From Planctomycetota bacterium (GTDB lineage: Bacteria > Planctomycetota > UBA1135), in contig JAKVCF010000002.1 in NCBI GenBank assembly GCA_022447335.1, positions 1 to 40,254 on the forward strand: DNA of 40,254 nt, in the 5' to 3' direction. Positions 5,081-34,791 of the stretch are shown here, piece after piece. Within the stretch, counting starts at the first letter, position 1. Each line of letters opens with the position of its first letter. The translations under genes were made by a program, and so were the position numbers. The notes beneath the pieces were generated by a model that saw nothing but the letters and a program-made list of their open reading frames with translations, did not search any database and was not told the origin of the DNA.

Positions 5081-5139
5081 AACCTATAAGCCAACTAACC
5101 GATAAGTCGGCAACAGAGCTTGGGAAGCGGCCGCCGGCT

Positions 5140-5181: not shown

Positions 5182-5192
5182 GCCCTGACCGA

Positions 5193-5711: not shown

Positions 5712-5717
5712 CGCCTA

Positions 5718-6368: not shown

Positions 6369-6380
6369 GCCTAGGCACAC

Positions 6381-6872
6381 TTATTCGATCGCTTCGGCAA
6401 GGACACTCGCACCCACTTCACTTCCACTCGAAAGCTTAACTGCGCCGCGCCAAGCGGGCGGGTCGACCGGGCGAACACCGGTGCGCGTGAAGGGGCCTAG
6501 CACTACTTTGTTTAACTCCAGTGGAACCACAGCGCGTGCCTCACGCAAAGAATCGTCGAGAATCCCTGCAGTGCCTCCGTCAACACCAGACCACTCGCCG
6601 CTGATATCAACGTCGAGAAACAATCGCCCGTAAAGCATGGTAGGCCTCCGCTCATTTGGAAGGTCTTCATCGATCAAAAGGTGTACCTCGGCAGAAAGCG
6701 ACCGTGCGGATCGCTCGCTATTCCAGGTGTAAGCTTCGTTGTGTAATTCGAGACGGAAGCCCTCGCCTTGATAAATCAAGCGTGCAGGTAAGCCACTATG
6801 TGCAAGCGAAATCTCTCCCTCACTCCCACAGGATGAGAGGGTGTATAACGCAAGCCAAGCGAAGGTGCGCAT
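6381..6872 (-). CDS. hypothetical lipoprotein, translationally coupled to the M20 peptidase
   Basis: The signal/lipobox-like N-terminus is MRTFAWLALYTLSSCGSE. Its ATG (6870-6872) overlaps the TGA of the upstream peptidase gene by 1 nt (TGATG on the minus strand). Confidence 0.5.
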   Translation of the reverse strand: MRTFAWLALYTLSSCGSEGEISLAHSGLPARLIYQGEGFRLELHNEAYTWNSERSARSLSAEVHLLIDEDLPNERRPTMLYGRLFLDVDISGEWSGVDGGTAGILDDSLREARAVVPLELNKVVLGPFTRTGVRPVDPPAWRGAVKLSSGSEVGASVLAEAIE

Positions 6873-8305: not shown

Positions 8306-8373
8306 CCTTTCAGGATACTCGCGCGCCCGCTTCTCTCCCTCGGGCGAGCGGGCGATGCTAGCTTCTTGCACCC

Positions 8374-19261: not shown

Positions 19262-20218
19262 TCAGGTGCGCAACGCTTCGTCGAAGTAGCTCTGCTCAAG
19301 CAAATAATCTTCGCGATAAGCCGTCGCAAGAAAGCGTAACAAGCGCGTCGGCGCCGCGAGTGTGGCCTCACCACTCCGATAGGAGCGAATGGACTCGCGC
19401 ACCTCTTCTTTTTCCGCCGAACGCAGTGAGTGCTTAAAGAATCCTGCCATGTGGTCGAGAACATTCTGGTGTGTGCCGCGAGTTGGGCGTTGGGCAATGC
19501 ACCGTAGGTATAAATCCTGATATTCCTCTGCAAATTTCTCCGCCTCCAGATCGGAGATCGAAGCGACAAGCTGACCGAGCGCGCGATACATCTCCACATT
19601 ATGTGCGAGCAAAAAAAACTTCTCACGCGTATGAAAGTCGACAACGTCTCCGCGCCTCCATAGCCCATCTTCGAACAGCAGTCGCAATCGTCGCACCGCA
19701 CGCACGCGGCCAAAAAAGTGTGCTTTCAGATGCGGGTCGTTGAGCCTCCCATCTTCTTCCAAGGGAAGCCAGGGCAAGCGCGCGCGCAAAGCTTCCGTGA
19801 AAAACCCGTCGCGTGAGCGATGAGTAGGTCCACCGTCTTTGTAGATCTTGACGCGCTCCATCCCGCAGCTGGGCGAACCTTTCGTAAGCACAAATCCGTG
19901 CAACCTCTCGTTGGCAAGCTCTTCAGCCTTCTCCTGTGCCCACGCCATCATGGCTTCGGTATGGTCCGCCCCCGAGTCCGTTTCGACTAGGCGGTCCCCC
20001 TGCTCGCTGGCGACAATGCGAATGGTCGGCCGCGGGGCGCCCATACCGATCCCCATCTCGGGGCAGACTGCAATCCAGTCAACGCGCTCGGTGAGCTCAC
20101 GCGTTAGAAGCCGGCTCTCCTTTGCCTGTGCGTTGTAGCGCACTGGGGCCCCAAGTAAGCACATTGAGACGCCAAGTCGGAGCGGGCGCTCCGAGATTGA
20201 TGGCAGCGGCCAGACCAT
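19262..20218 (-). CDS. DUF523 (TudS-like [4Fe-4S] thiouracil desulfidase) fused to DUF1722 (YbgA-like)
   Basis: The three Cys motifs characteristic of DUF523/TudS are present: VSMCLLGAPVRY, VCPEMGIG and GSPSCG. The C-terminal half (HTREKFFLLAHN...YRALGQLVA) resembles DUF1722. It starts 9 nt after the carH-like gene stop. Confidence 0.8.
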   Translation of the reverse strand: MVWPLPSISERPLRLGVSMCLLGAPVRYNAQAKESRLLTRELTERVDWIAVCPEMGIGMGAPRPTIRIVASEQGDRLVETDSGADHTEAMMAWAQEKAEELANERLHGFVLTKGSPSCGMERVKIYKDGGPTHRSRDGFFTEALRARLPWLPLEEDGRLNDPHLKAHFFGRVRAVRRLRLLFEDGLWRRGDVVDFHTREKFFLLAHNVEMYRALGQLVASISDLEAEKFAEEYQDLYLRCIAQRPTRGTHQNVLDHMAGFFKHSLRSAEKEEVRESIRSYRSGEATLAAPTRLLRFLATAYREDYLLEQSYFDEALRT

Positions 20219-20227
20219 CAGATCAAC

Positions 20228-21169
20228 TTAATCCTGCTGATCAAATGGCCTTATTCCGTATTCGGACTGCATCCATAACTCGAGCTCCGCCAAGGTCGGC
20301 AAGTACACCACATCCCGCACGCCGCGGCGAGCGCGCCGTGCCCCACTCCCTCCGATCAGCAAAGTGGTCTTTGGATGCAGCTCGCGGCGGAGTGAAGAGA
20401 TAACGCGATCGGTCGCCGGACCGCCCGACGCAGTCGACACACTGATCGCGACTGGTGACCGCGGCACCTCTTTCGAAACGCGCACAATTTCATCAACCGG
20501 GAGGTCCACGCCCAGCAACACCGGCTCTCGCTCATACAACGCGACCAATAAGGCCACCAGCTGCAGCCCCAGCCCATGTCGCTCACCGGCTAGAGTCGCA
20601 AGAATGACGCGATCCGATTCAGCAATATTGCGATCAGTCGCACTAACCTGCCCGCGGAATCCACGCAGTAAATCCTGTAGCACTTCGGTGAGTTGGTGCT
20701 CCTGCGCAATGGTCAATCGATCTTCTTGCCATGCACGTCCGACTTCGTGAATGAGGGGCACGACCGCATCAAAAATGGTGGTGCGCGCACCGCGGTTATG
20801 CCAGCAACGCTTCAGTTCTTCAGCTAGCGAAACGCTATCGCTGGCATAGACCATGTCCATCAGCTGGCCTACTAGCGGCCCCAAGTCGGATCCGGGCTGA
20901 CGCTGGGTGAGCTGCTCGAGCTCTTCACCTTCCAGTTTGAGCACCTTCCCCGGGCGATGGCCGTTCGCAAGAGCCTCGGCCACGCAACGCAGCCAAACCA
21001 CCTGCTCCTGGGTATAGCGCCGGTGACCTGATGCCAAGCGCACCGCCTGCGGCTTACCGTAGCGGCGCTCCCAAACACGAATTGTGTGAGGCGATAAACC
21101 AGTGGTCTCACCTACCTCCCCAATGGAAAAAAGGCTCCCGGGATCCATGTTTGCCCCTGAATCGACCAT
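20228..21169 (-). CDS. carH: MerR-family, cobalamin-binding light-responsive regulator (CarH/LitR class I-like)
   Basis: The MerR HTH is FSIGEVGETTGLSPHTIRVWERRYG. A helical-bundle Wx9EH signature (AWQEDRLTIAQEH) and the B12 lower-ligand motif ExHxxG (GERHGLG) are present, followed by a Rossmann-like segment. An alternative start is the ATG at 21148. Confidence 0.8.
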   Translation of the reverse strand: MVDSGANMDPGSLFSIGEVGETTGLSPHTIRVWERRYGKPQAVRLASGHRRYTQEQVVWLRCVAEALANGHRPGKVLKLEGEELEQLTQRQPGSDLGPLVGQLMDMVYASDSVSLAEELKRCWHNRGARTTIFDAVVPLIHEVGRAWQEDRLTIAQEHQLTEVLQDLLRGFRGQVSATDRNIAESDRVILATLAGERHGLGLQLVALLVALYEREPVLLGVDLPVDEIVRVSKEVPRSPVAISVSTASGGPATDRVISSLRRELHPKTTLLIGGSGARRARRGVRDVVYLPTLAELELWMQSEYGIRPFDQQD

Positions 21170-21193
21170 ATGACTAGATTATAACCTCAACAG
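21170..21193. promoter_or_regulatory. 24-bp divergent carH/photolyase control region with overlapping -10-like boxes
   Basis: The minus strand reads TATAAT (21183->21178), 8 nt before the ATG at 21169. The plus strand reads TATAAC (21180-21185), 8 nt before the ATG at 21194. Both start codons are symmetric about the TTATAA core (21179-21184). I recognised no convincing -35 element. Confidence 0.45.
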
Positions 21194-22690
21194 ATGCCAG
21201 CCCCATGCGAACTTCGCCGGCGGGTCCTGTGCGACCTCCCACCACACCCTGAGAGCCAATACATCCTGTACTGGCTGACGGCAACGCGCCGACTGGAACG
21301 AAACCACGCTCTGGACCAGGCCCTTGATTGGTGCACGAAGCTAAATAAGCCATTAGTAATCCTGGAATCACTGCGCAGCGACTACCGCTGGTCATGCCCC
21401 CGCCACCACCGCGTCCTACTTGACGCAATGGCCGAGCACATCGCCGCGATTGATCCGTGCAAGATCCGCTACTACCCCTATGTAGAACACGAAGCCGGTG
21501 CAGGCAAGGGACTACTCGCGGCAATGGCTCAGGATGCTGCAGTGGTCGTCACTGACCGCCATCCGGGTTTCCATTTTCCAGCCATGCTAGAAGCTGCGCG
21601 CAAGCAGCTGAAGGTGCGCTTCGAGGTAGTCGAAAGTGTCGGCCTACTACCACTCGATGTCGCGCCCGGCCCCCTGCCTAGTGCTTATGTCCTACGCCGC
21701 CGCATGCAAAAGAACCTAGCGAACTGGCTGGGGCGTACCGCTGCAGATGACCCCCTCACGGCCTATACCTGGGGGCGCGCCAAAATCCGTCCGCAGATTG
21801 AAGCTCGTTGGCCGGAAGCTACTACAGAAGAGCTCGCACCCGCCATGCGGCTCGAATCGAAGATCCCGCTCGCATACGAAGTACCCGTTACTAACTGGTG
21901 CGGCGGCACCCGACCAGCGCGGGCCTTACTCGACCGCTTCATCGAGGAGCAACTGCCCCGTTACGGAGAGCGCCGAATGGAAGCAACTCCAACAAGTGGG
22001 CTTTCAATGGCCTTGCATTACGGTTTCCTCTGCCCGTCGACAATACTCGACGCCACGCTAGCTTCCAGTGACACCAGCCGCGCCCATATCCTTCCTGAAC
22101 TGGCCAAGCGAGCCAATCTTTCACGTGGATCCCGCGCAGGCTGGTGGGGACTATCGGAGCAGGTTGAAACCTTCCTCGATCAACTCGTAACTTGGCGCGA
22201 ATTAGGTCATCGATTCGCCGACCAAAACCCTGACTGTGAGCGCTATGGGAGCCAACCAAGCTGGGCTGTAGCTACTCTCGATTCACACCGTGCGGACGCG
22301 CGCGAGTTCGCGTACACACGTGAGCAGTTTGAGCAGGCCCGCACCCATGACCCACTTTGGAATGCCGCACAACGCTGCCTTGTCCGTGAGGGTTGGATGC
22401 CCAACTATTTACGCATGCTCTGGGGCAAGAATCTGCTGACCTGGAGTCAGGATCCCGAAGAGGCTTGGGAACTCCTCTTCCATCTCAATAACCTCTATGC
22501 CTTAGACGGCCGCGATCCCAACTCCATGCGCGGGATTACCTGGGTCTTTGGCCGCTTCGACCGCCCTTTCGGCCCCGAGCGCCCCGTCACTGGCAAGCTG
22601 CGCCCGATGAGTTCAGTGAACACCAAGCGGAAAATGGCTCTGGGCGAATTTTTAGACCGTTTTAACAAAGTTGAGCGCCTGTTTAGCTAG
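21194..22690 (+). CDS. phr: deoxyribodipyrimidine photolyase, class II-like
   Basis: The C-terminal FAD-domain pattern GWMPNYLRMLWGKNLL...LNNLYALDGRDPNSMRGITWVFG...GKLRPMS...KRK parallels class II CPD photolyases. The N-terminal YILYWLTATRRLERNHAL is a diverged version of the YWMxRDQRxxDNWAL region. Confidence 0.8.
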   Translation: MPAPCELRRRVLCDLPPHPESQYILYWLTATRRLERNHALDQALDWCTKLNKPLVILESLRSDYRWSCPRHHRVLLDAMAEHIAAIDPCKIRYYPYVEHEAGAGKGLLAAMAQDAAVVVTDRHPGFHFPAMLEAARKQLKVRFEVVESVGLLPLDVAPGPLPSAYVLRRRMQKNLANWLGRTAADDPLTAYTWGRAKIRPQIEARWPEATTEELAPAMRLESKIPLAYEVPVTNWCGGTRPARALLDRFIEEQLPRYGERRMEATPTSGLSMALHYGFLCPSTILDATLASSDTSRAHILPELAKRANLSRGSRAGWWGLSEQVETFLDQLVTWRELGHRFADQNPDCERYGSQPSWAVATLDSHRADAREFAYTREQFEQARTHDPLWNAAQRCLVREGWMPNYLRMLWGKNLLTWSQDPEEAWELLFHLNNLYALDGRDPNSMRGITWVFGRFDRPFGPERPVTGKLRPMSSVNTKRKMALGEFLDRFNKVERLFS

Positions 22691-22698
22691 GCGACGAT

Positions 22699-22746
22699 TT
22701 GCGTGATATTGACTCTGCCCCTAAATTCGCTGCCCCAAAATTTAGG
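22699..22746 (+). promoter_or_regulatory. candidate sigma70-like promoter (TTGCGT-17-TAAATT) overlapped by an 8-bp inverted repeat
   Basis: TTGCGT lies at 22699-22704 and TAAATT at 22722-22727, with a 17-nt spacer. The inverted repeat is CCTAAATT (22720-22727) and AATTTAGG (22739-22746). It sits between the photolyase stop (22690) and the DUF1295 ATG (22752). Confidence 0.3.
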
Positions 22747-22751
22747 CAACT

Positions 22752-23573
22752 ATGAAACTCTCGTTTCTACCTCACAGCGTCCCAATCGTAGCCATGCCAT
22801 GGGAACACTATTTCTGGGCAGGCGCGCTGCTCGCCATCGGATTCGCGCTTCTATGGGGCGGCCTTGGCCGCGCCGGGCGCAGCGGTTGGGCGGACTTCGC
22901 CTGGGCCGTTGCAATCGGCGTGAGCGCCGCAGTCTTAGCGGAGTTGGGAAATGGCTGGGCCTACCGGAAAGTCGTGGTGGCAGCACTTGCTCTTGTCTGG
23001 GCAAGTCGACTAGCAGTTCACCTTGGCAAGCGCCTCGCTCATGAAGGAGAAGACGGCCGATATCTGGCGATGGCCGCTCGGCTTGGCGCCAGTTATCGCA
23101 CCTTCATGCTGGGATTCTTTCTCCTACAGGCTTTCATGGCTTGGGTATTCACTCTGCCCTTCTTCGTGCTGGCTCAAGATCCCACCGAAAACTTTCGAGC
23201 CATAGAGCTGCTCGGCCTTGGCCTTTGGCTGATAAGCCTCGCTGGCAACAACCTGGCAGACCGTCAGCTAGTTGCTTGGAAAGCCGACCCAGCAAACCAA
23301 GGCAAAACCTGCCGCAGTGGACTGTGGGCTTGGTCGCGTCACCCTAACTACTTTTTTGAGTGGTTAATCTGGTGCGCATACCCAGTCATGGCCATTGGCA
23401 CCGACGGCCTCATCTGGGCCGCTGGCGTCGCTGCCTTCATGTTCATAATGGTGCGCTTCGTCTCAGGCGTGCCCTTCACCGAGCAGCAGGCAGTGCGCAG
23501 TCGCGGTGACGACTATCGACGCTATCAGGAAAGCGTCTCGCCATTCTTCCCTCTCCCCCCCAAATCTTCCTGA
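22752..23573 (+). CDS. DUF1295 family membrane protein (steroid 5-alpha-reductase/ICMT-like fold)
   Basis: It has WSRHPNYFFEWLIW and a multi-pass membrane profile. An alternative start is at 22794. Its stop overlaps the next ATG by 1 nt (TGATG). Confidence 0.7.
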   Translation: MKLSFLPHSVPIVAMPWEHYFWAGALLAIGFALLWGGLGRAGRSGWADFAWAVAIGVSAAVLAELGNGWAYRKVVVAALALVWASRLAVHLGKRLAHEGEDGRYLAMAARLGASYRTFMLGFFLLQAFMAWVFTLPFFVLAQDPTENFRAIELLGLGLWLISLAGNNLADRQLVAWKADPANQGKTCRSGLWAWSRHPNYFFEWLIWCAYPVMAIGTDGLIWAAGVAAFMFIMVRFVSGVPFTEQQAVRSRGDDYRRYQESVSPFFPLPPKSS

Positions 23574-24601
23574 TGAGTACTCCGATCCAACTGGCTGAGC
23601 GCGGTCTGGTCCCTGAGTTTGCAATCCGCTGGGGCATTCGTCGCTTATTGCGCGACCGAATCCGCGAAGAAACCGCCCGCCTCTCGTCCGGCCGCGAACT
23701 CGCGCTGCAGAACTGGGTTGAGCAAATGCGTAGCAGCCAAGTGGCGCTGCACACGGGCGCAGCAAACGAACAGCACTACGAGGTCCCGCCGGACTTCTTC
23801 GAAGAATGCTTGGGCGGGCATCTTAAATACAGCTCGTGCTACTACACCACAGGGCACGAGTCGCTTACGGAGGCTGAGGCGGCCATGCTCGCGCTGACCA
23901 GTGAGCGCGCCCGTCTAGCAAACGGGCTCGACATACTTGAACTAGGCTGTGGTTGGGGATCGCTGTCTCTATGGATGGCCAAACACTACCCAATGAGCCG
24001 AATCACCTCGGTGTCAAATTCTGCCCCACAGCGCGAATTCATCGCAGCGCGCGCAGCTGAACGCGGCCTGACCAACCTCCAAGTCATCACTGCCGATGCG
24101 AATACATTCGAACCAGACAGTACATACGATCGCATTGTGTCCGTGGAAATGTTCGAGCACATGCGCAACTGGGAACAGCTGCTTGGCCGTGCATATGGCT
24201 GGTTGCGCGCTGGAGGGAAGATGTTCCTCCACGTCTTTTCACATAAGAGCTACTGCTATCCATTCGAGGTAGAGGGTGATAACAACTGGATGGGGCGGTC
24301 CTTCTTCACCGGGGGCATGATGCCTAGCCACGATCTGCTAGACCACCTCGACATCCCCTTTGAGCTCGAAGAGCGATGGGAAATCAATGGTCGCCACTAT
24401 GCGCAGACCTCGGAACACTGGCTCGAAAATCTGAACAACTGCCGCACAAAGCTGATGCCAGTGCTCGCAAACACCTACGGGCCAGAAAATGCCAAGCGAT
24501 GGTTTCACCGCTGGCGCATATTCTTCCTCGCTTGCGCCGAACTATTCGCTTATGACCAGGGCAATGCTTGGCAAGTGACACATCATCTTCTGAAAAAATG
24601 A
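23573..24601 (+). CDS. SAM-dependent methyltransferase, cyclopropane-fatty-acyl-phospholipid synthase family (short form)
   Basis: It carries HYEVPPDFFEECLGGHLKYSSCYY, the SAM motif ILELGCGWGS and SVEMFEHM. It has an ATGA overlap with the desaturase gene. Confidence 0.8.
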   Translation: MSTPIQLAERGLVPEFAIRWGIRRLLRDRIREETARLSSGRELALQNWVEQMRSSQVALHTGAANEQHYEVPPDFFEECLGGHLKYSSCYYTTGHESLTEAEAAMLALTSERARLANGLDILELGCGWGSLSLWMAKHYPMSRITSVSNSAPQREFIAARAAERGLTNLQVITADANTFEPDSTYDRIVSVEMFEHMRNWEQLLGRAYGWLRAGGKMFLHVFSHKSYCYPFEVEGDNNWMGRSFFTGGMMPSHDLLDHLDIPFELEERWEINGRHYAQTSEHWLENLNNCRTKLMPVLANTYGPENAKRWFHRWRIFFLACAELFAYDQGNAWQVTHHLLKK

Positions 24602-25551
24602 AGTCGGCTTCACAAGCGATCGTACGGTGGTTTGACTCCTGGGCAGGCGTTGATGAATCACACGACCTGCGCAATGAAATAGACTGGACGCGCGTCCTTC
24701 CCTTCATTGGCATGCACCTCGCGTGCATCGCCATAATATGGGTCGGCGTTAGCTCGGCGGCAGTTACCGTCGCGATCGGCGGGTACTTCCTGCGCATGTT
24801 TGCGATCACAGGCTTCTATCATCGCTACTTTAGTCACCGCGCCTTTGAGACCTCACGCCTGGTTCAGTTCTTGGGCGGTTTTCTCGGAGCGACCTCGACC
24901 CAACGTGGACCCCTATGGTGGGCGGCACATCACCGCTTACACCATCGCCACTCGGATGAACCTGCCGACGCTCACTCGCCAATCCAGCACAGCCTTCTGA
25001 CTAGTCATGTGGGCTGGTTTTTAAACACGGCAAACTTCCGCACGCGCACTGAACAGGTACCTGACCTGATGAAGTTCCCCGAATTGCGCCTGCTCGATCG
25101 CTTTGATGTGCTAGCTCCGGCTATCTATGCCGCGGGCTGCCTTCTACTGGGCCGCGCACTCGAAACGTGGGCACCCAACCTTGGCACGAACGGGCCGCAG
25201 ATGCTGGTGTGGGGATTTTTTGTATCGACTGTGGCCCTGTACCACGGCACCTTCACAATCAACTCACTCGCACACCTCTGGGGAAAACGTCGTTATAAGA
25301 CGGAAGACGACAGTCGCAATAACTGGCTTCTTTCGATAATCACGCTCGGCGAAGGGTGGCACAACAACCATCACTACCACCCCGGATCCGCCCGCCAAGG
25401 TTTCCGCTGGTGGGAATTCGATCCGACGTGGTACGCGCTAAAAGTGTTTGAAAAAATGGGGGTTATCTGGAATGTCCGCGGCGTACCAAAACGAGTGATA
25501 CATGCCGGGAAGCTCGCGCGTAAATCGAACCACCAGAAGAGGGCTACCTAA
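24598..25551 (+). CDS. membrane fatty-acid desaturase (Delta9/stearoyl-CoA desaturase family)
   Basis: Three His boxes are present: HRYFSH, HRLHHRH and HNNHHYH. I chose the start at the ATG at 24598, overlapping the upstream stop. The stop TAA overlaps the next ATG (TAATG). Confidence 0.85.
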   Translation: MKSASQAIVRWFDSWAGVDESHDLRNEIDWTRVLPFIGMHLACIAIIWVGVSSAAVTVAIGGYFLRMFAITGFYHRYFSHRAFETSRLVQFLGGFLGATSTQRGPLWWAAHHRLHHRHSDEPADAHSPIQHSLLTSHVGWFLNTANFRTRTEQVPDLMKFPELRLLDRFDVLAPAIYAAGCLLLGRALETWAPNLGTNGPQMLVWGFFVSTVALYHGTFTINSLAHLWGKRRYKTEDDSRNNWLLSIITLGEGWHNNHHYHPGSARQGFRWWEFDPTWYALKVFEKMGVIWNVRGVPKRVIHAGKLARKSNHQKRAT

Positions 25552-26867
25552 TGCGCATTGCCGTGGTTGGCGGCGGCGTGTCTGGACTGGTAGCCGCATG
25601 GCTGCTCGCACGTGAACACGAAGTCGTGCTGTACGAGGCCGAAAATCGCATCGGCGGCCATGCGCATACTAGTGAAGTTGACTTCGGCGACGGGCCGATT
25701 GCCGTCGACACTGGATTTATTGTCTTTAATCACCGCACCTATCCGCTGTTCCGCCGTGTACTACAGGAACTTGGCGTTCCTGAAAAACTTTCCAATATGA
25801 GCTTTAGCGCGTCGATTCCTTCACGTGGGATCGAATACAACGGCGCCAGTTTCAATAAACTCTTTGCGCAACGCCGTAATCTAATTCGGCCGTCTTTCTG
25901 GCGCATGGTTCGCGGCATCCTGCGCTTTTACAAAGAGTCTCGCGAACTACTTTCTCCCGAAGCCGCAGAAGTAGCGCTTGGCGAATACCTGCAGAAGAAT
26001 CGCTATGCTCGCGAATTTGTTGATGACCACCTAGTTCCGATGGCCGCCGCCGTTTGGTCTACGGATCGTGAGCGAATGATGGACTTCCCAGCACGCTTCC
26101 TCGTGCGCTTCTTTGACCACCACGGATTTCTCGAAGTGGATAACCGCCCAGCATGGTTCACAGTCGAGGGTGGTTCGCGCGAATATGTGGCGGCTATCAG
26201 CCGCCAACTCGGAGGCGCAGTTCGGTCGGGTACCCCGGTGAAAAATATCGCGCGGTTGCCCAAACATAGTGGCAGTAGTCACAGCATGCGCGTGACCTCA
26301 AGAGAAAGTGTTGATCTGTTCGATCAAGTCGTGCTCGCAACACATAGCGATACCACGCTGCGCTTGCTTGAAGACCCAACAAAAGCTGAGGGCGAGGTGC
26401 TCAGCGCGCTTCCTTACCAAAACAATGTGGCGCAGCTTCACTCTGATGCTTCGGTTATGCCAAAAAAACGCCGCGCCTGGGCTAGCTGGAACTATCACGT
26501 CGGCCGCAACTCGAAAGCACCACCGACCATCACTTATTGGATGAACTTATTACAAGGCATCGAGTCACCCGAGCCACTCTTTGTCACACTCAACCGGCAA
26601 GAAGAAATCGACCCGGCCAAAGTACATGGCCAGTGGAACTATGCTCATCCGCTGTACACCGCGCAAACCGTCGCTGCGCAAATGCGGCGCCTAGAGATCC
26701 AAGGAGTTGACCGCATCTGGTATGCCGGCGCCTATTGGGGATATGGATTTCACGAAGACGGAGTACGTTCCGCCGTCGAAGTAGCGCGTCGTCTCGGCGT
26801 GCCTTTCGCCGAAGACTTACCTGAACGTGAGATCGATCGGTTATTAACCATGGAGGCTGTTACGTGA
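25551..26867 (+). CDS. FAD/NAD(P)-binding oxidoreductase (amine-oxidase/phytoene-desaturase-like)
   Basis: The N-terminal dinucleotide fold is MRIAVVGGGVSGLVAAWLL...YEAENRIGGH. It sits in the gene order FAD-oxidoreductase / DUF1365 / CFA synthase that I recall as conserved across many bacteria. Confidence 0.8.
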   Translation: MRIAVVGGGVSGLVAAWLLAREHEVVLYEAENRIGGHAHTSEVDFGDGPIAVDTGFIVFNHRTYPLFRRVLQELGVPEKLSNMSFSASIPSRGIEYNGASFNKLFAQRRNLIRPSFWRMVRGILRFYKESRELLSPEAAEVALGEYLQKNRYAREFVDDHLVPMAAAVWSTDRERMMDFPARFLVRFFDHHGFLEVDNRPAWFTVEGGSREYVAAISRQLGGAVRSGTPVKNIARLPKHSGSSHSMRVTSRESVDLFDQVVLATHSDTTLRLLEDPTKAEGEVLSALPYQNNVAQLHSDASVMPKKRRAWASWNYHVGRNSKAPPTITYWMNLLQGIESPEPLFVTLNRQEEIDPAKVHGQWNYAHPLYTAQTVAAQMRRLEIQGVDRIWYAGAYWGYGFHEDGVRSAVEVARRLGVPFAEDLPEREIDRLLTMEAVT

Positions 26868-27676
26868 TGCAGGGCATCCCTGGTTGCTCGATCTACTACG
26901 GACGCGTGCGACACCGGCGATACACGCCGCGAATCCACTCCTTCTCCTACAGCCTTTTCTTAGTCGGGATCGACTTAGACCGGGCCGAAGAAGCGATGGG
27001 GGTAAGCAAACTGTTGGGCTATGAACGCTTTGCTCACTCAAGCTTCCGCCGCACTGACTACTACGGCGATCCTTCTGTAGCACTCGGCACCGCAGTGCGT
27101 AATCGCGTTGAAGCCGAATCCGGCTTCCGCCCAACGGGGCCGATTGAACTGGTCACACAGCTGCGCACCTTTGGCTACTCATTCAACCCGGTCAGCTTCT
27201 ACTACTGCTGGACGCCGGATCGCAGCCAACTACAGGCCATCCTCGTAGAGATTACCAATACCCCATGGGGGGAGCGCCACTCATACGTACTGCCCTGGCA
27301 GGCCTTAAAGGAAAAGGGCTTAAACACGCTCAGGCGCCGCAGTCAGCGCTGGGCCTTCCGCAAAGATTTTCATATCTCTCCTTTCAGCCCAATGGAGATC
27401 GAGCATGACTGGCGTTTCGCCCAACCGGGACAACGCCTTAGCGTGCACATGATCAATCGCGCATTGAACCGTAGCGCAGAGTTCGATGCCACACTGCTAC
27501 TTAAGCGTCACCCTTTCACGCGCCGTGAAGTGCGGCGAGCCCTGTTGCGCCACCCATTCCTGCCCGGGAAGTCCTTGTTCGGAATTTACTGGCAAGCGCT
27601 AAAACTATTCTTGAAGCGCGCACCCTTCCACGCGCACCCCGCTAAGCGATCCACCAAATCCGCCGAAAGTTCATGA
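26864..27676 (+). CDS. DUF1365 family protein
   Basis: It has the YYGRVRHRRYTPRIHSFSYSLFLVGIDLD N-terminal signature. The start is GTG at 26864 or ATG at 26867, and both overlap the upstream TGA. It has an ATGA overlap with the next gene. Confidence 0.75.
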   Translation: MMQGIPGCSIYYGRVRHRRYTPRIHSFSYSLFLVGIDLDRAEEAMGVSKLLGYERFAHSSFRRTDYYGDPSVALGTAVRNRVEAESGFRPTGPIELVTQLRTFGYSFNPVSFYYCWTPDRSQLQAILVEITNTPWGERHSYVLPWQALKEKGLNTLRRRSQRWAFRKDFHISPFSPMEIEHDWRFAQPGQRLSVHMINRALNRSAEFDATLLLKRHPFTRREVRRALLRHPFLPGKSLFGIYWQALKLFLKRAPFHAHPAKRSTKSAESS

Positions 27677-28962
27677 GTCAACCCCGCACTATTTCTGCTC
27701 CGGCACCTCGTGATGTCGCCGCTACCCACCCAGGCTGGCTGACACGCGTAGCGGGCAACGCCCTTTCAAAGGTCGGGCGGAAAGGCCTACTTACTCGACT
27801 GGAAAAGCTGCATTTTGGCGAGCTGACAATCGAAGAAGGTGGTCAAAAGCACCGCTTTGGGGCCCCCACAAACGACGGCCTAGCCGCAACGTTAAGTGTT
27901 CATGATTCGCGATTCTGGACTGAGCTTCTGGCTAGTGGAACCGTTGGCGCAGGCGAAGCCTATCGCCAAGGTTGGTGGGCAGCGGAAGATCTAACTCAAG
28001 TTGTTCGCATTCTTGTGCGCAACCGTGCGGTCATGGAAGACGTGGAAGGCGGCTTAGCAGCATTGGCTGCACCCCTGCGCAAGATGGCTCACTGGGCTAA
28101 CCGGAATACTATTGAGGGGAGTCGCAAGAATATCGAAGCTCACTACGACCTCTCAAATGACTTCTTCTCATTGATCCTCGATCCGACAATGACGTACTCG
28201 TGCGGGATTTATCTATCAAAAGATGCCTCGCTCGAAAGCGCCTCGATAGAGAAGATCGATCGCCTGTGCCGAAAGCTTGAGTTAAAGCCTGGTATGCGCC
28301 TACTCGAAATTGGCACCGGATGGGGTGCACTGGCAATTCATGCGGCTAAGAACTATGGAGTACGAGTCACGACCACGACTATCTCCGATCGCCAGGCTGA
28401 ATGGGCGGAACGCCGCATCACTGAAGAAGGGCTGGGTGATCAGGTCACCCTGCTGCGCAAGGACTATCGTAAGCTCGAAGGCAAGTTCGACAGAATTGTT
28501 TCGGTCGAGATGATTGAGGCCATCGGATGGCAGTATTTCGACTCGTACTTTGAAGTCATTGGCAAGCGCCTAGAAGACGACGGCCTAGCCGCCATTCAGG
28601 CCATTACGATTGCCGACCAGCATTACGAGAGCGCCCGCGCCTCCGTAGACTTTATTCAGAAGTACATCTTCCCAGGCTGTTGCATTCCATCGATCAGCGC
28701 GCTCTTAGAGTCTGCGACTCAGTCAAGCGACCTAAAGCTAATTGGGCTCGAAGACATTACGCCGCACTATGTGCGCACTCTGGCCGAATGGCGCAAGAAT
28801 ATGTTCGATAACCAAGAGCAAGTTCGAGCCCTTGGTTTAGACGACAAGTTCATCCGTACCTGGGACTACTACTTCAGCTATTGCGAAGGGGGCTTTGCGG
28901 AAAGCCAGCTCGGCGACGTCCAGATGCTCTTTGGTAAGCCACGCTACCAGGTCCCAGCGTGA
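27673..28962 (+). CDS. cyclopropane-fatty-acyl-phospholipid synthase family methyltransferase (long form)
   Basis: It carries HYDLSNDFFSLILDPTMTYSCGIY, LLEIGTGWGALAIHAA and SVEMIEAIG. Its stop overlaps the GTG start of the next gene (GTGA). Confidence 0.85.
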   Translation: MSQPRTISAPAPRDVAATHPGWLTRVAGNALSKVGRKGLLTRLEKLHFGELTIEEGGQKHRFGAPTNDGLAATLSVHDSRFWTELLASGTVGAGEAYRQGWWAAEDLTQVVRILVRNRAVMEDVEGGLAALAAPLRKMAHWANRNTIEGSRKNIEAHYDLSNDFFSLILDPTMTYSCGIYLSKDASLESASIEKIDRLCRKLELKPGMRLLEIGTGWGALAIHAAKNYGVRVTTTTISDRQAEWAERRITEEGLGDQVTLLRKDYRKLEGKFDRIVSVEMIEAIGWQYFDSYFEVIGKRLEDDGLAAIQAITIADQHYESARASVDFIQKYIFPGCCIPSISALLESATQSSDLKLIGLEDITPHYVRTLAEWRKNMFDNQEQVRALGLDDKFIRTWDYYFSYCEGGFAESQLGDVQMLFGKPRYQVPA

Positions 28963-29486
28963 ACCTCCTGGCTCTATTCTTAGTTTTCCAGGGGGCCTGG
29001 TTCGCGATCGTATATAGCGGCGCACAAGGAAACTCGGTCTGGGCGATAGCAGCAACGGCAATGGCACTTGGGCTGCTGATACGCATGTACTCAGCCCGTG
29101 GCGTACTGCTCCGCGCGACAATCGGCGCCTCCTGCGGCATTGTGCTCGACGGCACACTAATTTATTTCGACCTGACCACCTTCCCAGCGACTTGCGGGCT
29201 ACCTTTTGGCGAGGATGTCCTACCGCTCTGGATGCTCTGCCTCTGGTCGATCTTCGCAGCAATCCTGCCCTATATGGTTCCCTGGCTCGAAGGCCGACGC
29301 GCACTCGGCGTCGTCTTCGGGGCAGCCGGAGGGCCTATCGCTTACTTCTCGGCTGAAAAGTTGGGCGCCATCGAAGTCGCTGGCCTACTAGGCTACAGCG
29401 CAGTAGGCATAGCCTGGTCTGCTGCAATGGCAGTACTACCACTCGCCGAGCACAAGCCGAAAGCCTCTGGATCCTTGCGGCAGTAA
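28959..29486 (+). CDS. small polytopic membrane protein (DUF2878-like)
   Basis: This hydrophobic 175-aa ORF has a GTG start overlapping the upstream stop. The family assignment comes from its position in the cluster and its N-terminal FQGAWFAIVYSG pattern, and needs an HMM check. Confidence 0.55.
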   Translation: MNLLALFLVFQGAWFAIVYSGAQGNSVWAIAATAMALGLLIRMYSARGVLLRATIGASCGIVLDGTLIYFDLTTFPATCGLPFGEDVLPLWMLCLWSIFAAILPYMVPWLEGRRALGVVFGAAGGPIAYFSAEKLGAIEVAGLLGYSAVGIAWSAAMAVLPLAEHKPKASGSLRQ

Positions 29487-29517: not shown

Positions 29518-29952
29518 CTACCGGCGTGAAGCTGGCAATACTGGTACAGGGCGCCGGTTTTCATCGACAGCGACATAAGTAACCTCTGCTTCGGTAACAC
29601 GAATCTCTTCACCATCTGAATCATCTTTACGCTGCACCTTAACGAGCACCTTCACTTGGACCGAAGTTCTACCTACCTTGCAAACTTGTGCGTAGAAGGA
29701 ACAAAGGTCTCCCACGAATACAGGCTCGTGGAAAACAATCTCGTTCATCGCCACCGTCACGAAGCGACGAGCTGGATTGAGCTTGCGAACTGGGACAACT
29801 CCCGCCAAGTCGATGTGCGCAAGAATAACGCCACCGAAGATCGTGCCCTGCGCATTGGTATCACGCGGCAGCAAGATCGTACGCAAGGCAAGCTCTGTCG
29901 GATAGTCGCAATCGTCGCCGCAAAGTTCAGAGCTATCGTGTATTCCAGTCAT
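29518..29952 (-). CDS. acyl-CoA thioesterase (hotdog fold, YciA-like)
   Basis: It has LLPRDTNAQGTIFGGVILAHIDLAG. I chose the start at the ATG at 29952, 7 nt after the upstream gene stop. Confidence 0.8.
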   Translation of the reverse strand: MTGIHDSSELCGDDCDYPTELALRTILLPRDTNAQGTIFGGVILAHIDLAGVVPVRKLNPARRFVTVAMNEIVFHEPVFVGDLCSFYAQVCKVGRTSVQVKVLVKVQRKDDSDGEEIRVTEAEVTYVAVDENRRPVPVLPASRR

Positions 29953-29959
29953 AATTTTC

Positions 29960-30715
29960 TCAGTTGATGTCTTCGCGGATTTGCAGATTACGGAACTCAA
30001 TCAGTGCGCCCTCGGCTTCTAGTGCCAGATAACCCGTGCTGGGCTTGCACATGAATCCGCGGTTTACTAGTACGCCATTAACCCAAAGGGTCACTTGACC
30101 GTCAACAGCGCGTAAAGCATAAGTATTCCATTCGCCCGCAGGGCGCACCACGCGCCCACTTGGAAAACTCCGCGAGCTGTTCGGATTTCCCACTTTGTAC
30201 TCACTGCCATCCTCGGCTTGGTACACAATTTCTGGATTCTCCGCCTCCATGCTCGCTTCGCCAACTGGGAAGATGTCGCCGTGCGAAGTGAACCAGTTTG
30301 ATGGCGCCCCACGATCCTTGATCCAGTTTTCCTCGTAGCCGAGGTCGAGTACCTGAATCTCGATACCCGTGCGCGGCAGTTGACCTGGTGGTAAATCAGT
30401 AAAGGCCGACTCAGGGCACCAAAGGAAAATGCCTGAGTTTCCTGCGTAGTCATGATGCTTCCACTCAACGGTTAACTCAAAATCGGAGTACTCCTTTCTT
30501 GAGCGCGCGCCCCCCATCGGCTTCCCAGTGCAGATGATGGAGTTACCTTCTTGGCGCCACGTCGTCCCGTCACCATTGACGTTGACGAAGTCTTCAAGCG
30601 TAAGATCAACCCAACCACCGCCAGCGAACTCTTTCGGAATCCCCGGGTACGGCACCGCGCAGGACGATGCGAGCACCAAAAGCAAAGCAAGTCTCAATAG
30701 AACGGGGAAAAGCAT
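29960..30715 (-). CDS. DUF1080 (3-keto-disaccharide hydrolase-like) lipoprotein
   Basis: It has a lipobox (LVLASSC). The segments TWRQEGNSIICTG...YSDFELTVEWKH...NSGIF and LEAEGALIEFRNLQI are typical of DUF1080. Confidence 0.75.
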   Translation of the reverse strand: MLFPVLLRLALLLVLASSCAVPYPGIPKEFAGGGWVDLTLEDFVNVNGDGTTWRQEGNSIICTGKPMGGARSRKEYSDFELTVEWKHHDYAGNSGIFLWCPESAFTDLPPGQLPRTGIEIQVLDLGYEENWIKDRGAPSNWFTSHGDIFPVGEASMEAENPEIVYQAEDGSEYKVGNPNSSRSFPSGRVVRPAGEWNTYALRAVDGQVTLWVNGVLVNRGFMCKPSTGYLALEAEGALIEFRNLQIREDIN

Positions 30716-30739
30716 CGGAGAAAGTGTACTTGAGTCTTC

Positions 30740-31399
30740 TTAAGGTTGAGTAATCCAGCTTTCGAGTTGACGCTGGGTCCAGCTGCTGACTTCGTCGAGC
30801 TGGCCCTGGAAAAAGTGCGTCCCCCCCTCGATTACATGTAGAGCGCCGCCATGCTGTTTGACTCGATTCATACTCGCCAGATTGACGTACTCATCTGCGC
30901 TGCCCATTAAAAAGCTGTTACGCTCTGGCCAAATCTCGCCTTGGGGCCAAGCGTAGAAATTAGTCGGCCAAGCAACGCCCATATAGCCCGCCGGCTCGCG
31001 CCCAGCCGCCGTCTCACGGATCGAGAAATCGAGGCCCACGCGCGATCCAAAAGAGAATCCCCAGACAAAGGCTGGAACATCCGGAAGTTGCTCGCGCATC
31101 CAGGCGTAGGCGGCCGCAGCATCATCGACCTCTCCCTCGCCTTCGTCGTAGCGGCCTTCGGACTGTCCCACCCCGCGAAAATCAACTCGGAGCGCGGCAC
31201 AACCAGCCGCCAATGAGCCCAGCGCGCCATGGCGCACTACATTGCTCTGACGCGAACCGCCATGCAAAGGGTGCGGGTGCAAATGGAGCACTGCCGCTTT
31301 GGGCTCCGTGTATGGCCGCTCAAAAGTCGCATGCAGCCGCCCCGCCAAACCATCCAGGAACAACCGGCGAGGCGGCTGGGTATCGAGATCGCGCACCAT
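30740..31399 (-). CDS. alpha/beta hydrolase
   Basis: It has LHLHPHPLHGGSRQSNVV, FRGVGQSEG and the nucleophile-elbow-like GFSFGS. Confidence 0.7.
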   Translation of the reverse strand: MVRDLDTQPPRRLFLDGLAGRLHATFERPYTEPKAAVLHLHPHPLHGGSRQSNVVRHGALGSLAAGCAALRVDFRGVGQSEGRYDEGEGEVDDAAAAYAWMREQLPDVPAFVWGFSFGSRVGLDFSIRETAAGREPAGYMGVAWPTNFYAWPQGEIWPERNSFLMGSADEYVNLASMNRVKQHGGALHVIEGGTHFFQGQLDEVSSWTQRQLESWITQP

Positions 31400-31955: not shown

Positions 31956-33215
31956 CTAGTACATACCTGAAATCTTCTTTGGCTTGTAATCAGGGAAAAA
32001 GCCCTTCGGGGCTTTGAAGTCGAAGGTGCCGTCGAGCACAGTGTGAAAGACATCACGGAAGTCTGTCGTAACTTGTAGGTCACGGCCCTGATAGAGCTGT
32101 GCGGCCTTCAAGCCCTGCCAATCGCCATATACCTTGCCCCCCTTCACGCCACCGCCAAGCACAAACATGCCACCACCGTGGCCGTGGTCCGTGCCGCGGT
32201 TGCCATTCTCACGGACAGTTCGGCCAAATTCGGTCATGACAATAATGGTTGTCGTATCGAGCTTTGAGCCAAGATCGAAGCAGAAGGCCGCGAGCGAATC
32301 ACTCAAATCTTTTAGGCGCGTAGCGTGACGCCCTTCGGCGCCCCCCTGGTTCGCGTGATCGTCCCAACCACCGTAATCAAGCCCGGCAACCTCCAGGCCT
32401 TCCCCGGCCTTGAGCACCTTGGCCATTGCAGCAAGGCGCTGCGAGAAGCGGCCGTCCGGGTATTTGACATCAGTTTTACCTTTGGCCAGGATCTCCTGAT
32501 AGCGGCGCAGCGTTTCGATAGTCACACGGCCACTTTCGACGATGCCCGCGCCATCTTCAGGGCGCTCCATTTCACCTGACATCTGCCCAGGCATTTTTCC
32601 TGCAACTGGGCCGTCCCCGTAAAACTCTTCGAAGCGGTTGAGCGTCTTTGCACCCTTATTCCGGTCCATGCCACTGGGAACGGCTAGCACTGGAAACTCC
32701 CCCCGCAGCGAGCGTGGGAGCAGTTCTTGCATAGCCATGCCGCGGAATTCGCTGGCATCTTTAACTTGTGACTCTTGCAGGTAGCGATTCAGCCAACCCG
32801 AGCGGACCGTACGATTACCCGGCGCAGCGAACTCCATAAAATCTTGCGCGTCAAAATGGCTGCGCGTGGTGTGCGGAGACCCCACGGCGACAATCGGCGC
32901 AAGTTGCTTCTCTTTCCAGAAAGGTTCAAGCGACTGAAAAGCGGGGTGCAACCCCCAATCACGATTGAGTTGCACTAAGCCATCTTCGTCATTCATCGCT
33001 AGAGTCGGACGGACTGCAAGGTACTCATCGTCATCGCGCGGCACGATCATGTTCAGCCAGTCCGCTCCTCCGCGTAGATAAATGCACACAATCGAACGCG
33101 GGCCCTTGGGCCTGCGGCCCATTGCAAACAGCGCGCGCTCAAAAGGGTTGACGGTGGCAATCAGTCCGGCTGCAGTAGCGGACTTCAAAAAATCGCGACG
33201 GTTAGAAATCGTCAT
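31956..33215 (-). CDS. DUF1501 family protein (sulfatase-fold), Tat signal
   Basis: The Tat signal is MTISNRRDFLKSATAAGL and the C-terminal motif is TEFGRTVRENGNRGTDHGHGG. I chose the start at the ATG at 33215, 4 nt after the DUF1800 stop. Confidence 0.8.
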   Translation of the reverse strand: MTISNRRDFLKSATAAGLIATVNPFERALFAMGRRPKGPRSIVCIYLRGGADWLNMIVPRDDDEYLAVRPTLAMNDEDGLVQLNRDWGLHPAFQSLEPFWKEKQLAPIVAVGSPHTTRSHFDAQDFMEFAAPGNRTVRSGWLNRYLQESQVKDASEFRGMAMQELLPRSLRGEFPVLAVPSGMDRNKGAKTLNRFEEFYGDGPVAGKMPGQMSGEMERPEDGAGIVESGRVTIETLRRYQEILAKGKTDVKYPDGRFSQRLAAMAKVLKAGEGLEVAGLDYGGWDDHANQGGAEGRHATRLKDLSDSLAAFCFDLGSKLDTTTIIVMTEFGRTVRENGNRGTDHGHGGGMFVLGGGVKGGKVYGDWQGLKAAQLYQGRDLQVTTDFRDVFHTVLDGTFDFKAPKGFFPDYKPKKISGMY

Positions 33216-33219
33216 AGGT

Positions 33220-34791
33220 CTATTGCTGTTGGAACTCGGGGGAACCAAGGAGAAGGCCGACGAGTTGTGGGCCAAGCTCGCGGGAATCAGGGACTCGAGT
33301 TTTCTTTAGGTACTCGTCAGTCACTGTAGACAGCGCATTGCGAGTACGCTGACCGGCGCCTCCCGGAAGTAGGCGATTTGTGAGGTGATGCTGCCAGAGG
33401 CGCGGAATGCCCTGTGGCAAATCGTCGAAAAACTCGACCGGGATTTCGACGCCCTTGACCTTTCCCGTGGCCAGGTCAAGCGCAAAACCCCAACGCGTCG
33501 CCATCACGCCCGGATCGAGCCAGGCTTCAGCGACGTCATAGTAGCCAGTGGGATCATCGCAATGCAGAATCGGTTGACCCATATCGCGGAGTGCGGTCAG
33601 GCATCGATTCACTTCCTGCACTTCCGCGTCAGTTGCGCGCAGCGCGGCACAGAGGAACTCGAGCGGGGTGCGAAACTTCGTGCGAACTACTCCGGGCGAC
33701 CAAAATTCCTCACTCTTAACAATGGTGCGCACCATGTCCGGGATAAGCCCGTCGGTTTTGCGATAGACGCTGGCTACTTCCTTGACCAGCGAGCTAGGTG
33801 GCTGGTCCGCGACCAGGAGTCGGACTAACTTCATCGCAATGAACTCGGCCGTCCCCCTGTGATCGGCCAGCATTTCGACAATAGCCTCCCCTTCACCAAC
33901 GCCCCCTTTGTCACGATCCTCACGGATTTTTCTGCCAAGTACCCGCTTATCGCCTGTCACATGCATTTCTGATCGAAAACGAAAGCCCCAGCTACCTTCG
34001 CGCCTACCGTCATAGGTCCATCCAGTTAACGCCTCGGCAACCGCAATCACATCCTTCTGCTTATAAATATTGTCGACACCAAGGGTGTGCAACTCGAGCA
34101 ACTCGCGAGCGTAGTTCTCATTAAGCCCACGTTGCGCCGCAATCTCCGCCGCTTGCTCACCCGCCTCGCGCGAGTCAGTTCGCCGACGCTCGCGCCGCTC
34201 TATCTCGGCGAGCTCCTGCTTCGACGGCGGCTTGCGCGACAAATGGTTATCGAGGTAATGCAGCATCGCGGGGTGCTTTGCCGAAGCCATGAGCATCTCT
34301 GGAAAGTTTCCGAGCGCATGCCGGCGTACTACTTCGCGGTCGTAATCAGTAATCAGAAAGTCGGCTGGGCCTCCCTTCGTAAAAGAAACATTGAAATGAT
34401 TTCGCCAGAAATCTGCGAGCACCGCTTCAACCTGGCGACTTGAGAAAAGTGAGCGTAAAAAAGTCGCGCGAGTCAGCTCACCCTTCGGAATACGACGTTT
34501 CTCCCGCTCAGCTTGGCGCTCTTCCGCCGACAACTCGTTCCCACGCCGGCCCTCGAAGTCCTCGGTTATCCAGGTGTAAAGCCTGGGCGTAGACATGTCG
34601 AGAGTCTGGAAGTTGGTCAGCGCTTCCTTCATGCGAGGGTCGGATTCCTCGCCAGGAGCCAACTGCTCCTCGACCCAGTTGTCCTCACCTTCCGCAAGCA
34701 CACGTTCAACCTCAGCCTCGGATGGCCCGAAACTCAGTCTCGACAGCAGGTGGACGGCGCGATCCCGCATGACTCCCATGCTAGCGACCAA
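33220..34791 (-). CDS. DUF1800 family protein
   Basis: The N-terminal HLLSRLSFGPS and the internal HTLGVD and NENYARELLELHTLG motifs are typical of DUF1800. The longest ORF starts with TTG at 34791. ATG alternatives are at 34779 and 34770. Confidence 0.8.
   Translation of the reverse strand: MVASMGVMRDRAVHLLSRLSFGPSEAEVERVLAEGEDNWVEEQLAPGEESDPRMKEALTNFQTLDMSTPRLYTWITEDFEGRRGNELSAEERQAEREKRRIPKGELTRATFLRSLFSSRQVEAVLADFWRNHFNVSFTKGGPADFLITDYDREVVRRHALGNFPEMLMASAKHPAMLHYLDNHLSRKPPSKQELAEIERRERRRTDSREAGEQAAEIAAQRGLNENYARELLELHTLGVDNIYKQKDVIAVAEALTGWTYDGRREGSWGFRFRSEMHVTGDKRVLGRKIREDRDKGGVGEGEAIVEMLADHRGTAEFIAMKLVRLLVADQPPSSLVKEVASVYRKTDGLIPDMVRTIVKSEEFWSPGVVRTKFRTPLEFLCAALRATDAEVQEVNRCLTALRDMGQPILHCDDPTGYYDVAEAWLDPGVMATRWGFALDLATGKVKGVEIPVEFFDDLPQGIPRLWQHHLTNRLLPGGAGQRTRNALSTVTDEYLKKTRVPDSRELGPQLVGLLLGSPEFQQQ

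Follow-up and report, generated by a model that had tools for sequence, protein, structure and literature searches.

Seven overlapping genes at the locus

We analyzed a 40,254-nucleotide stretch of DNA from a Planctomycetota bacterium (lineage UBA1135; assembly GCA_022447335.1, contig JAKVCF010000002.1, positions 1 to 40,254), hereafter the window, which holds a run of seven genes resembling those for furan fatty acid synthesis in other bacteria. Seven plus-strand open reading frames (ORFs), g1 to g7, were confirmed across 22752-29486, and the domain families that a sequence-only reading of this DNA had assigned to all seven were borne out by Pfam:

22752-23573, plus strand: g1, polytopic membrane protein (DUF1295, 212 bits)
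23573-24601, plus strand: g2, short single-domain methyltransferase of 342 aa (CMAS, 129 bits)
24598-25551, plus strand: g3, desaturase (FA_desaturase, 83 bits); ATG start, the longest ORF running from TTG 24568
25551-26867, plus strand: g4, FAD enzyme (Amino_oxidase and NAD_binding_8)
26864-27676, plus strand: g5, DUF1365 protein (255 bits); GTG start, with an alternative ATG at 26867
27673-28962, plus strand: g6, two-domain methyltransferase of 429 aa (CMAS, 286 bits)
28959-29486, plus strand: g7, small membrane protein (DUF2878, 87 bits)

The same reading had described a stop/start overlap at each of the six junctions, and the junction strings match exactly: cTGATGa, aATGAa, cTAATGc, cGTGATGc, cATGAg and cGTGAa, with overlaps of 1, 4, 1, 4 (or 1), 4 and 4 nt in that order. 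Overlaps of 1 or 4 nt are also frequent outside the cluster in the window (e.g. 1329/1326, 3562/3559 and 6872/6872), and six in succession thus mark a tight operon but nothing exceptional in kind. The overlap pattern of g1 to g7 is kept in three related loci, L002, L089 and L090. Chance clustering of the seven genes was rejected, because the set is conserved across phyla. No NCBIfam model was found that is specific to any Ufa protein.

The known pathway provides the frame for assigning these genes. The Rhodobacter sphaeroides methylase UfaM (RSP2144, encoded beside the photolyase RSP2143) methylates cis-vaccenate, the FAD-type UfaD (RSP1091) makes the conjugated diene, and UfaO (RSP1090), a DUF1365 protein like RPA2570, closes the furan ring using O2; RSP1089-1087 are dispensable for furan fatty acid synthesis (PMC7380195). 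For Rhodopseudomonas palustris, RPA2571-2570-2569 (ufaD-ufaO-ufaM) are necessary and sufficient, and FufM (RPA0924) adds a second methyl group (PMC7380195). The sequence-only reading had thus described the pathway correctly, with UfaO as the DUF1365 protein, UfaD as FAD-type, UfaM as related to cyclopropane fatty acid (CFA) synthase and FufM as a second methylase (PMC7380195). In Pseudomonas syringae, PSPTO_1118-1117-1116 have an order like g4-g5-g6, and UfaM has PSPTO_1116 as its best hit (PMC5507510). Furthermore, in Chlamydomonas, CFA1 and CFA2 (annotated as CFA synthase), DUF1365, DUF1295 and SOUL genes are co-induced by singlet oxygen (PMC4067076).

The long methyltransferase g6 carries a UfaM-type active site

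g6 aligns to Escherichia coli CFA synthase over residues 61-420. We compared it with two enzymes of Halomonas sp. YLGW01, whose ufaM gives 11-methyloctadec-12-enoate and whose cfa gives cy17:0 and cy19:0 (PMC12089945). The DNA of both genes was taken from a supplement table of that paper damaged by optical character recognition, with dropped bases, and was aligned to protein with tolerance for frameshifts; the percentages are therefore approximate. g6 matched Halomonas UfaM with a score of 794 (approximately 48.7% identity over 386 residues) and Halomonas Cfa with a score of 448 (approximately 40.4% identity), and it was the best match to Halomonas UfaM within the window. g2 scored only 168 against Halomonas UfaM and fits neither UfaM nor Cfa well.

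The active-site strings separate the two types of enzyme. g6 has SVEMIEAIG and IQAITI where Halomonas UfaM has SVEMIEAVG and LQAITI, whereas Halomonas Cfa, the CFA synthases of E. coli, Lactobacillus acidophilus and Aquifex, and CmaA1 and PcaA carry [GA]...EH and H instead, the cyclopropane-synthase counterpart strings being GMFEH and LHTI. The positions concerned are G236, H240 and H266 of E. coli CFA synthase, at which g6 has E, A and Q, and g6 hence lacks the Gly236/His240/His266 set that surrounds the catalytic Glu239 of cyclopropane synthases. His266 is a bicarbonate ligand in the E. coli enzyme. All 18 sampled CFA-synthase-like proteins encoded next to a DUF1365 gene, including that of the Rhizobium tropici ChrR/sigma-E locus, have Glu at position 236 and Gln at 266; position 240 is Ala in 17 of them and Gly in one. 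This three-position UfaM signature was derived in the present analysis and is not a published criterion.

Thus, being closer to Halomonas UfaM than to Halomonas Cfa and having the active-site signature in common with the former, g6 is by its sequence a methylase of the UfaM type rather than a cyclopropane synthase. It presumably acts on a monoene, to give a methyl-branched trans-olefin. The signature could serve to correct the blanket annotation 'cyclopropane-fatty-acyl-phospholipid synthase', a label that lumps UfaM-type enzymes together with true cyclopropane synthases. A correspondence of g6 to RSP1089, which is dispensable for furan fatty acids, was also considered and was rejected, RSP1089 being a symporter of the GPH family (PMC7074977).

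The short methyltransferase g2 belongs to a FufM-containing subfamily

g2 matched the coclaurine N-methyltransferase structure 6gkv end to end (219 bits, 35% identity), as compared to 87 bits for E. coli CFA synthase, and is 23.5% identical to g6. It carries the string EMFEHM, with both His residues kept and Glu at position 236, and shares 47-50% identity with the methylase linked to DUF1295 at the R. tropici ChrR/sigma-E locus. FufM itself has a reported identity of 26% to UfaM (PMC7380195) and of 37.9% to LIME1, a coclaurine-N-methyltransferase-like protein of plants (PMC10940516). Thus, g2 falls by sequence into the coclaurine-N-methyltransferase/LIME1-like subfamily, to which FufM reportedly belongs, an assignment at the level of subfamily and not of orthology, and its presumed activity is that of the second, furan-ring methylase. 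The sequence-only reading had claimed that both methylase types are present, and this is supported, with g6 UfaM-like by alignment and signature and g2 LIME1/coclaurine-N-methyltransferase-like.

According to the deletion primers of PMC7380195, RPA0923 and fufM overlap in an ATGA that holds the stop of the former and the start of the latter. The FufM C-terminus, known to us from these primers only (...RLKPA), is compatible with the C-termini of g2 (HHLLKK) and of the R. tropici protein (YLLRPAG). The fufM junction rebuilt from the same primers had no match in the genome or metagenome contig collections. A 20-base degenerate pattern built from the RSP1090/1089 primers led to L004, from a Chloroflexia metagenome-assembled genome, which was discarded as a chance match with zero cluster genes.

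The AlphaFold (AF2) model of g1, the gene preceding g2, reached a confidence score (pLDDT) of 93.9. Its best fold match was the delta14-sterol reductase 4quv (probability 1.00, template modelling (TM) score 0.53), followed by the steroid 5-alpha-reductases 7c83 and 7bw1. The top fold matches had TM scores of 0.40-0.53 and E-values no better than 1e-3, with ICMT methyltransferases close behind, and g1 also has weaker Pfam matches to Steroid_dh and ICMT; a sequence search of the PDB was uninformative for g1. This modest fold match of a predicted structure favors a membrane C=C reductase, with a methyltransferase as the other candidate. g1 may work together with g2.

Candidate desaturase, UfaD, UfaO and membrane-protein genes

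The three His boxes of membrane desaturases are present in g3 as HRYFSH, HRLHH and HNNHH (HX4H, HX2HH, HX2HH), and they are aligned in its match to mouse SCD1 (4ymk, 85 bits). By these features g3 is a membrane di-iron acyl desaturase of the stearoyl-CoA (Delta9) type, and it presumably supplies the cis-monoene substrate. g4 has an N-terminal GGGVSG motif, its best PDB match is LkcE (165 bits), and it shares 43-44% identity with its FAD counterparts in the clusters of R. tropici and Cupriavidus. Its gene is followed directly by that for DUF1365, as are RSP1091 and RPA2571. From domain and position, g4 is a presumed UfaD-type desaturase that would make the conjugated methyl-diene.

The DUF1365 match of g5 spans profile positions 1-234 of 235, and the gene lies between those for the FAD enzyme and the methylase. 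g5 is 34% identical to its R. tropici homologue and 32% to that of Cupriavidus, and a PDB sequence search found no solved relative. Again judged by domain and position, g5 is presumably a UfaO-type, O2-dependent furan-ring former. Finally, homologues of g7 regularly follow the UfaM-type gene, as in L001, L002, L085, L086, L089 and the Aeromonas cluster (PMC10012899), and g7 may be a partner of g6.

The seven-gene set is widespread

To survey the distribution of the set, a profile of g2 relatives was used to collect 80 metagenomic loci, which were annotated with the window proteins. Of the 68 loci with room for it, 44 have a DUF1295 gene directly upstream of the short methylase. Genes g4-g5-g6 were found near the g2 homologue in 28 loci, 17 of which also hold a g3-like desaturase (>45% identity). 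The desaturases embedded in such clusters, including those of Dyella and Silanimonas, are 52-63% identical to g3. The commonest order is g3-g4-g5-g6-(g7)-g1-g2, of which the order in the window is a cyclic permutation, and the order FAD enzyme-DUF1365-methylase is invariant across phyla. All seven genes are linked in the cultured Dyella thiooxydans ATSB10 and Silanimonas lenta DSM 16282 and in many metagenomic loci, and the planctomycete Engelhardtia mirabilis has six of the seven. Thus, the seven-gene set is not peculiar to the window but is widespread, including in cultured Lysobacterales.

Replicons of R. tropici and Cupriavidus also have a DUF1295 gene directly preceding the g2 homologue (47-50% identity), and the pair lies beside FAD, DUF1365 and CFA-synthase-like genes; in R. 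tropici this is under ChrR-sigmaE, in Cupriavidus next to a photolyase. These ufa-type clusters with the DUF1295 and short-methylase pair are carried by plasmids, namely L088 (R. tropici CIAT 899 pRtrCIAT899a, 1677-9927) and L087 (Cupriavidus); one plasmid is conjugative, and its cluster adjoins ChrR/sigma-E, TspO and insertion sequence elements. The plasmid-borne clusters indicate that the pathway is horizontally mobile. In two further loci (L049, 4088-12669; L074, 10-4505) the short methylase and DUF1295 are separated by a shorter FA_desaturase, 26-29% identical to g3; genes for a lipocalin, a TMEM164-family protein and DUF2878 are further present in L049, and one for a SOUL haem-binding protein in L074. 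From this different desaturase, it appears that a desaturase joined the cluster more than once.

A literature search returned no paper describing the seven-gene form and no report of furan fatty acid biosynthesis in planctomycetes; the sole co-mention was PMC10107727, on Chromera velia volatiles, the content of which was not assessed.

Comparison with characterized and annotated systems

R. palustris CGA009 has the same order of FAD enzyme, DUF1365 protein and CFA-synthase-like methylase as g4-g5-g6, a second, short methylase that is ~25% identical to the first, and a short-methylase start that overlaps the stop of the preceding gene (RPA0923/fufM; g1/g2). However, fufM lies at a separate locus there, whereas here all genes are in one operon, and the planctomycete operon adds a Delta9-type desaturase and a DUF2878 gene as well as CarH/LitR-type regulation.

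The R. sphaeroides sigmaE/ChrR regulon comprises RSP1091-1087 (ufaD, ufaO, a GPH symporter, a hypothetical gene and a short-chain dehydrogenase/reductase (SDR)) and RSP2143-2144 (phrA, ufaM). As in the window, a photolyase is linked to the furan fatty acid methylase, here within a photo-oxidative stress response, and the UfaD and UfaO genes are adjacent and coupled, the stop of RSP1090 lying inside a GTGA that holds the start of RSP1089. Unlike the planctomycete locus, this system relies on an extracytoplasmic function (ECF) sigma/anti-sigma regulator instead of a B12 photoreceptor, its accessory genes encode a symporter and an SDR, and it has no desaturase, DUF1295, DUF2878 or FufM-type gene.

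The Pseudomonas LitR (PplR/PmlR) regulon contains phrB, SDR, FAD oxidoreductase, ufaM and hypothetical genes (PMC9758184), and similar clusters occur in P. syringae (PSPTO_1116-1121), Vibrio cholerae (VC1118-1122) and Aeromonas. Clusters of this kind resemble the window in bringing a MerR-family LitR, a photolyase and a ufa-type cluster together at one light-inducible locus, and the Aeromonas cluster also has DUF2878 at its end. They differ in having an SDR or NTF2 gene and in being without desaturase, DUF1295 and short methylase; moreover, Pseudomonas uses a class II LitR, whereas the planctomycete regulator has canonical CarH B12 motifs. The closest overall likeness in gene content is to D. 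thiooxydans ATSB10 (CP014841) and S. lenta DSM 16282 (KE386845), which have the seven families, tightly packed and at 29-63% identity, but in the order g3-g4-g5-g6-g7-g1-g2 and with neither photolyase nor LitR adjoining. Their clusters are only automatically annotated, and no published function was found for them.

The operon adjoins putative light-response genes

Upstream of g1, the following features flank the operon:

19262-20218, minus strand: RudS-type gene, a TudS-DUF1722 fusion (Pfam 2-thiour_desulf, 130 bits; DUF1722, 110 bits)
20228-21169, minus strand: CarH/LitR-family regulator (Pfam MerR_1, MerR, B12-binding_2 and B12-binding)
21170-21193, no strand: spacer of 24 nt between the divergent start codons, with the conserved GAC.AGATTATAA
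21194-22690, plus strand: class II cyclobutane pyrimidine dimer (CPD)-photolyase-like gene (TIGR00591 phr2, 272 bits, under the 550-bit cut-off)

The photolyase, whose best PDB matches are the class II photolyases 8oet, 2xry and 3umv, is the first gene of the plus-strand unit and is separated from g1 by a 61-nt gap. No terminator-like hairpin was found between 22690 and 22752. The gap (22691-22751) has motifs conserved in L002, L089 and L090, namely TTGC (TTGCACA in the three relatives) and CCTA, and it might serve as an internal promoter or for regulation.

The regulator carries the CarH motifs RAWQEDRLTIAQEH (Wx9EH) and GERHGLG (ExHxxG), and from these it presumably represses the divergent promoters until light releases it. 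In L002 and L090 the regulator is conserved and likewise diverges from the photolyase, and L089 has a cut ORF at the same place. Alignment of the spacer showed GAC.AGATTATAA to be common to the window, L002, L090 and L089; it corresponds to a perfect TATAAT on the minus strand, ~8-13 nt before the ATG of the regulator. The 24-nt spacer is a putative promoter or operator, and its layout suggests overlapping divergent promoters with leaderless or near-leaderless mRNAs. Scans for consensus promoters and terminators found nothing exceeding shuffled expectation.

On the divergent arm, the regulator is directly followed by the RudS-type gene, which has the same placement in L002 and L090. RudS proteins are tRNA 4-thiouridine desulfidases that are often encoded in LitR/photolyase light operons (PMC11417400). 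The light-related genes around the operon would thus also include one for a tRNA de-modification enzyme.

Because photolyase, CarH/LitR and RudS-type genes adjoin it, the operon appears as the larger part of a light/UV-response island at 19262-29486. The sequence-only reading had advised comparing light with dark, a hint that is explained by these three neighbors, which it did not mention. Precedents for such control are documented: in Pseudomonas, LitR controls phrB and ufaM clusters (PMC9758184), and in R. sphaeroides, sigma-E/ChrR controls the ufa genes and a photolyase (PMC3546557).

A candidate light-induced pathway to methylated furan fatty acids

We consider it probable that the operon turns the acyl chains of phospholipids into methylated furan fatty acids, and does so as part of the light-response island 19262-29486. 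As the domains and motifs of the regulator suggest, CarH/LitR bound to adenosylcobalamin would repress the two divergent promoters in the dark and be released by light, upon which the photolyase and the operon would be expressed. The O2-dependent, Delta9-type g3 would then make a cis-monoene in an existing saturated phospholipid chain, and g6 would add a methyl group and shift the double bond, yielding the methyl-branched trans-olefin. By homology and position, g4 would introduce a second, conjugated double bond, and g5 would insert an oxygen atom from O2 and so close the furan ring. g2 could add the second ring methyl, with g1 acting alongside g2 and g7 alongside g6. Within the membrane, the product may act as a scavenger of radicals and singlet oxygen, alongside DNA repair by the photolyase.

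Furan fatty acids act as potent antioxidants in membranes, and only four bacterial synthesis enzymes have been defined so far. The locus most likely extends this known pathway by three genes of unstudied role, an extension that the gene survey indicates is widespread: in a large share of bacteria, the furan enzymes travel with conserved desaturase, DUF1295 and DUF2878 genes. DUF1365 and the two methylase types have homologues in plants. Moreover, B12/CarH-type light control of a furan lipid pathway would be extended to Planctomycetota. Cultured and sequenced carriers in which these predictions can be tested are D. thiooxydans, S. lenta and E. mirabilis. The sequence-only reading had called a new oxidized or methylated lipid plausible; such a product is possible, but nothing in the data indicates it, and it is simpler to expect known mono- or dimethyl furan fatty acids whose ring position the desaturase determines.

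Several points weigh against this interpretation. The seven-gene form is known from genes alone, in this organism and in every carrier, and the orthology to UfaD, UfaO and FufM rests on domains, synteny and the literature. The regiospecificity of the g3 desaturase cannot be read from its sequence, and g3-type desaturases also lie within the clusters of the Gammaproteobacteria Dyella and Silanimonas. Gammaproteobacteria usually make cis-monoenes anaerobically via FabA/FabB, and substrate supply by g3 may therefore not be the whole story. Furthermore, the furan pathway as published offers no obvious step for a C=C reductase. In vitro, FufM by itself methylated the furan fatty acid 9M5-FuFA (PMC7380195), and g1 is thus not needed for the chemistry of ring methylation. 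RSP1087-1089 likewise illustrate that genes co-transcribed with ufaD and ufaO can be dispensable.

The desaturase, DUF1295 and DUF2878 proteins might instead be no accessories at all but parts of a distinct, widespread seven-enzyme pathway, a tentative idea that we regard as rather unlikely. If it were true, the product could be a lipid undescribed in bacteria, for example furan fatty acids with a ring position set by a dedicated desaturase; alternatively, DUF1295 could be a membrane ene-reductase that regenerates furan fatty acids from their oxidized dioxo-ene products, which would make the system a catalytic, repairable singlet-oxygen sink.

The main rival to a single furan pathway is that the operon encodes two pathways in parallel, with g4-g5-g6(-g7) leading to a monomethyl furan and g3-g2-g1 to a saturated mid-chain methyl-branched acyl chain. 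Tuberculostearic acid is made by a two-step methylenation/reduction route through BfaB and BfaA, and the logic of g3-g2-g1 would be similar. The best structural matches of g1 are NADPH-dependent sterol/steroid C=C reductases, but the match is modest (TM 0.53, E ~1e-3) and ICMT-type methyltransferases have the same fold. Genes g1, g2 and g3 are neighbors in the window, and in L049 and L074 the short methylase and DUF1295 directly flank a different desaturase; the commonest layout, however, puts g3 beside g4, at the far end from g1-g2. The g1-g2 pair occurs without any other detected cluster gene in 17 loci, many on short contigs, whereas among the 20 loci having at least 6.5 kb on both sides of the pair, 13 have the DUF1365 cluster. 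Finally, FufM, the one characterized short methylase reportedly of the g2 type, methylates the furan ring and not 18:1. Taken together, we judge two parallel pathways to be unlikely.

Less probable still is that the pathway stops before the furan, with DUF1365 doing something else here and the products being methyl-branched and/or conjugated dienoic (or otherwise oxidized) chains. The DUF1365 family has no known cofactor, mechanism or solved relative, g5 shares only 34% and 32% identity with its R. tropici and Cupriavidus homologues, and planctomycetes are so far absent from the furan fatty acid biosynthesis reports that our literature search yielded. Yet the DUF1365 match of g5 is strong and full-length (255 bits), the order of FAD enzyme, DUF1365 protein and methylase does not vary across phyla, and the distant DUF1365 proteins of R. 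sphaeroides and R. palustris both close the ring (PMC7380195).

That this is an ordinary CFA synthase operon with accessory genes, in which both methylases make cyclopropane rings, deserves very little credence: automatic annotation does name both methylases cyclopropane-fatty-acyl-phospholipid synthases, and NCBIfam CFA-synthase models do match, although below their cut-offs (277 vs 400 bits), but g6 and its 18 DUF1365-linked relatives differ at positions 236/240/266 from the cyclopropane-type residues kept by five solved synthases and Halomonas Cfa, the Halomonas UfaM that carries the g6 signature makes 11-methyloctadec-12-enoate and not cyclopropanes (PMC12089945), and g2 resembles N-methyltransferase-type enzymes far more than it does CFA synthase.

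Genes downstream of the operon

Convergent to the operon, at 29518-31399 on the minus strand, lie genes for a YciA-like acyl-CoA thioesterase, a 3-keto-disaccharide hydrolase-family protein and an alpha/beta hydrolase. This trio also comes after the operon in L089, though not in L002, and its position next to the operon probably reflects plain synteny and not function. The best named hits of the window are metagenome-assembled genomes of Planctomycetota. In line with this origin, a DUF1501/DUF1800 gene pair, of a kind typical of Planctomycetota, lies further downstream at 31956-34791 (minus strand).

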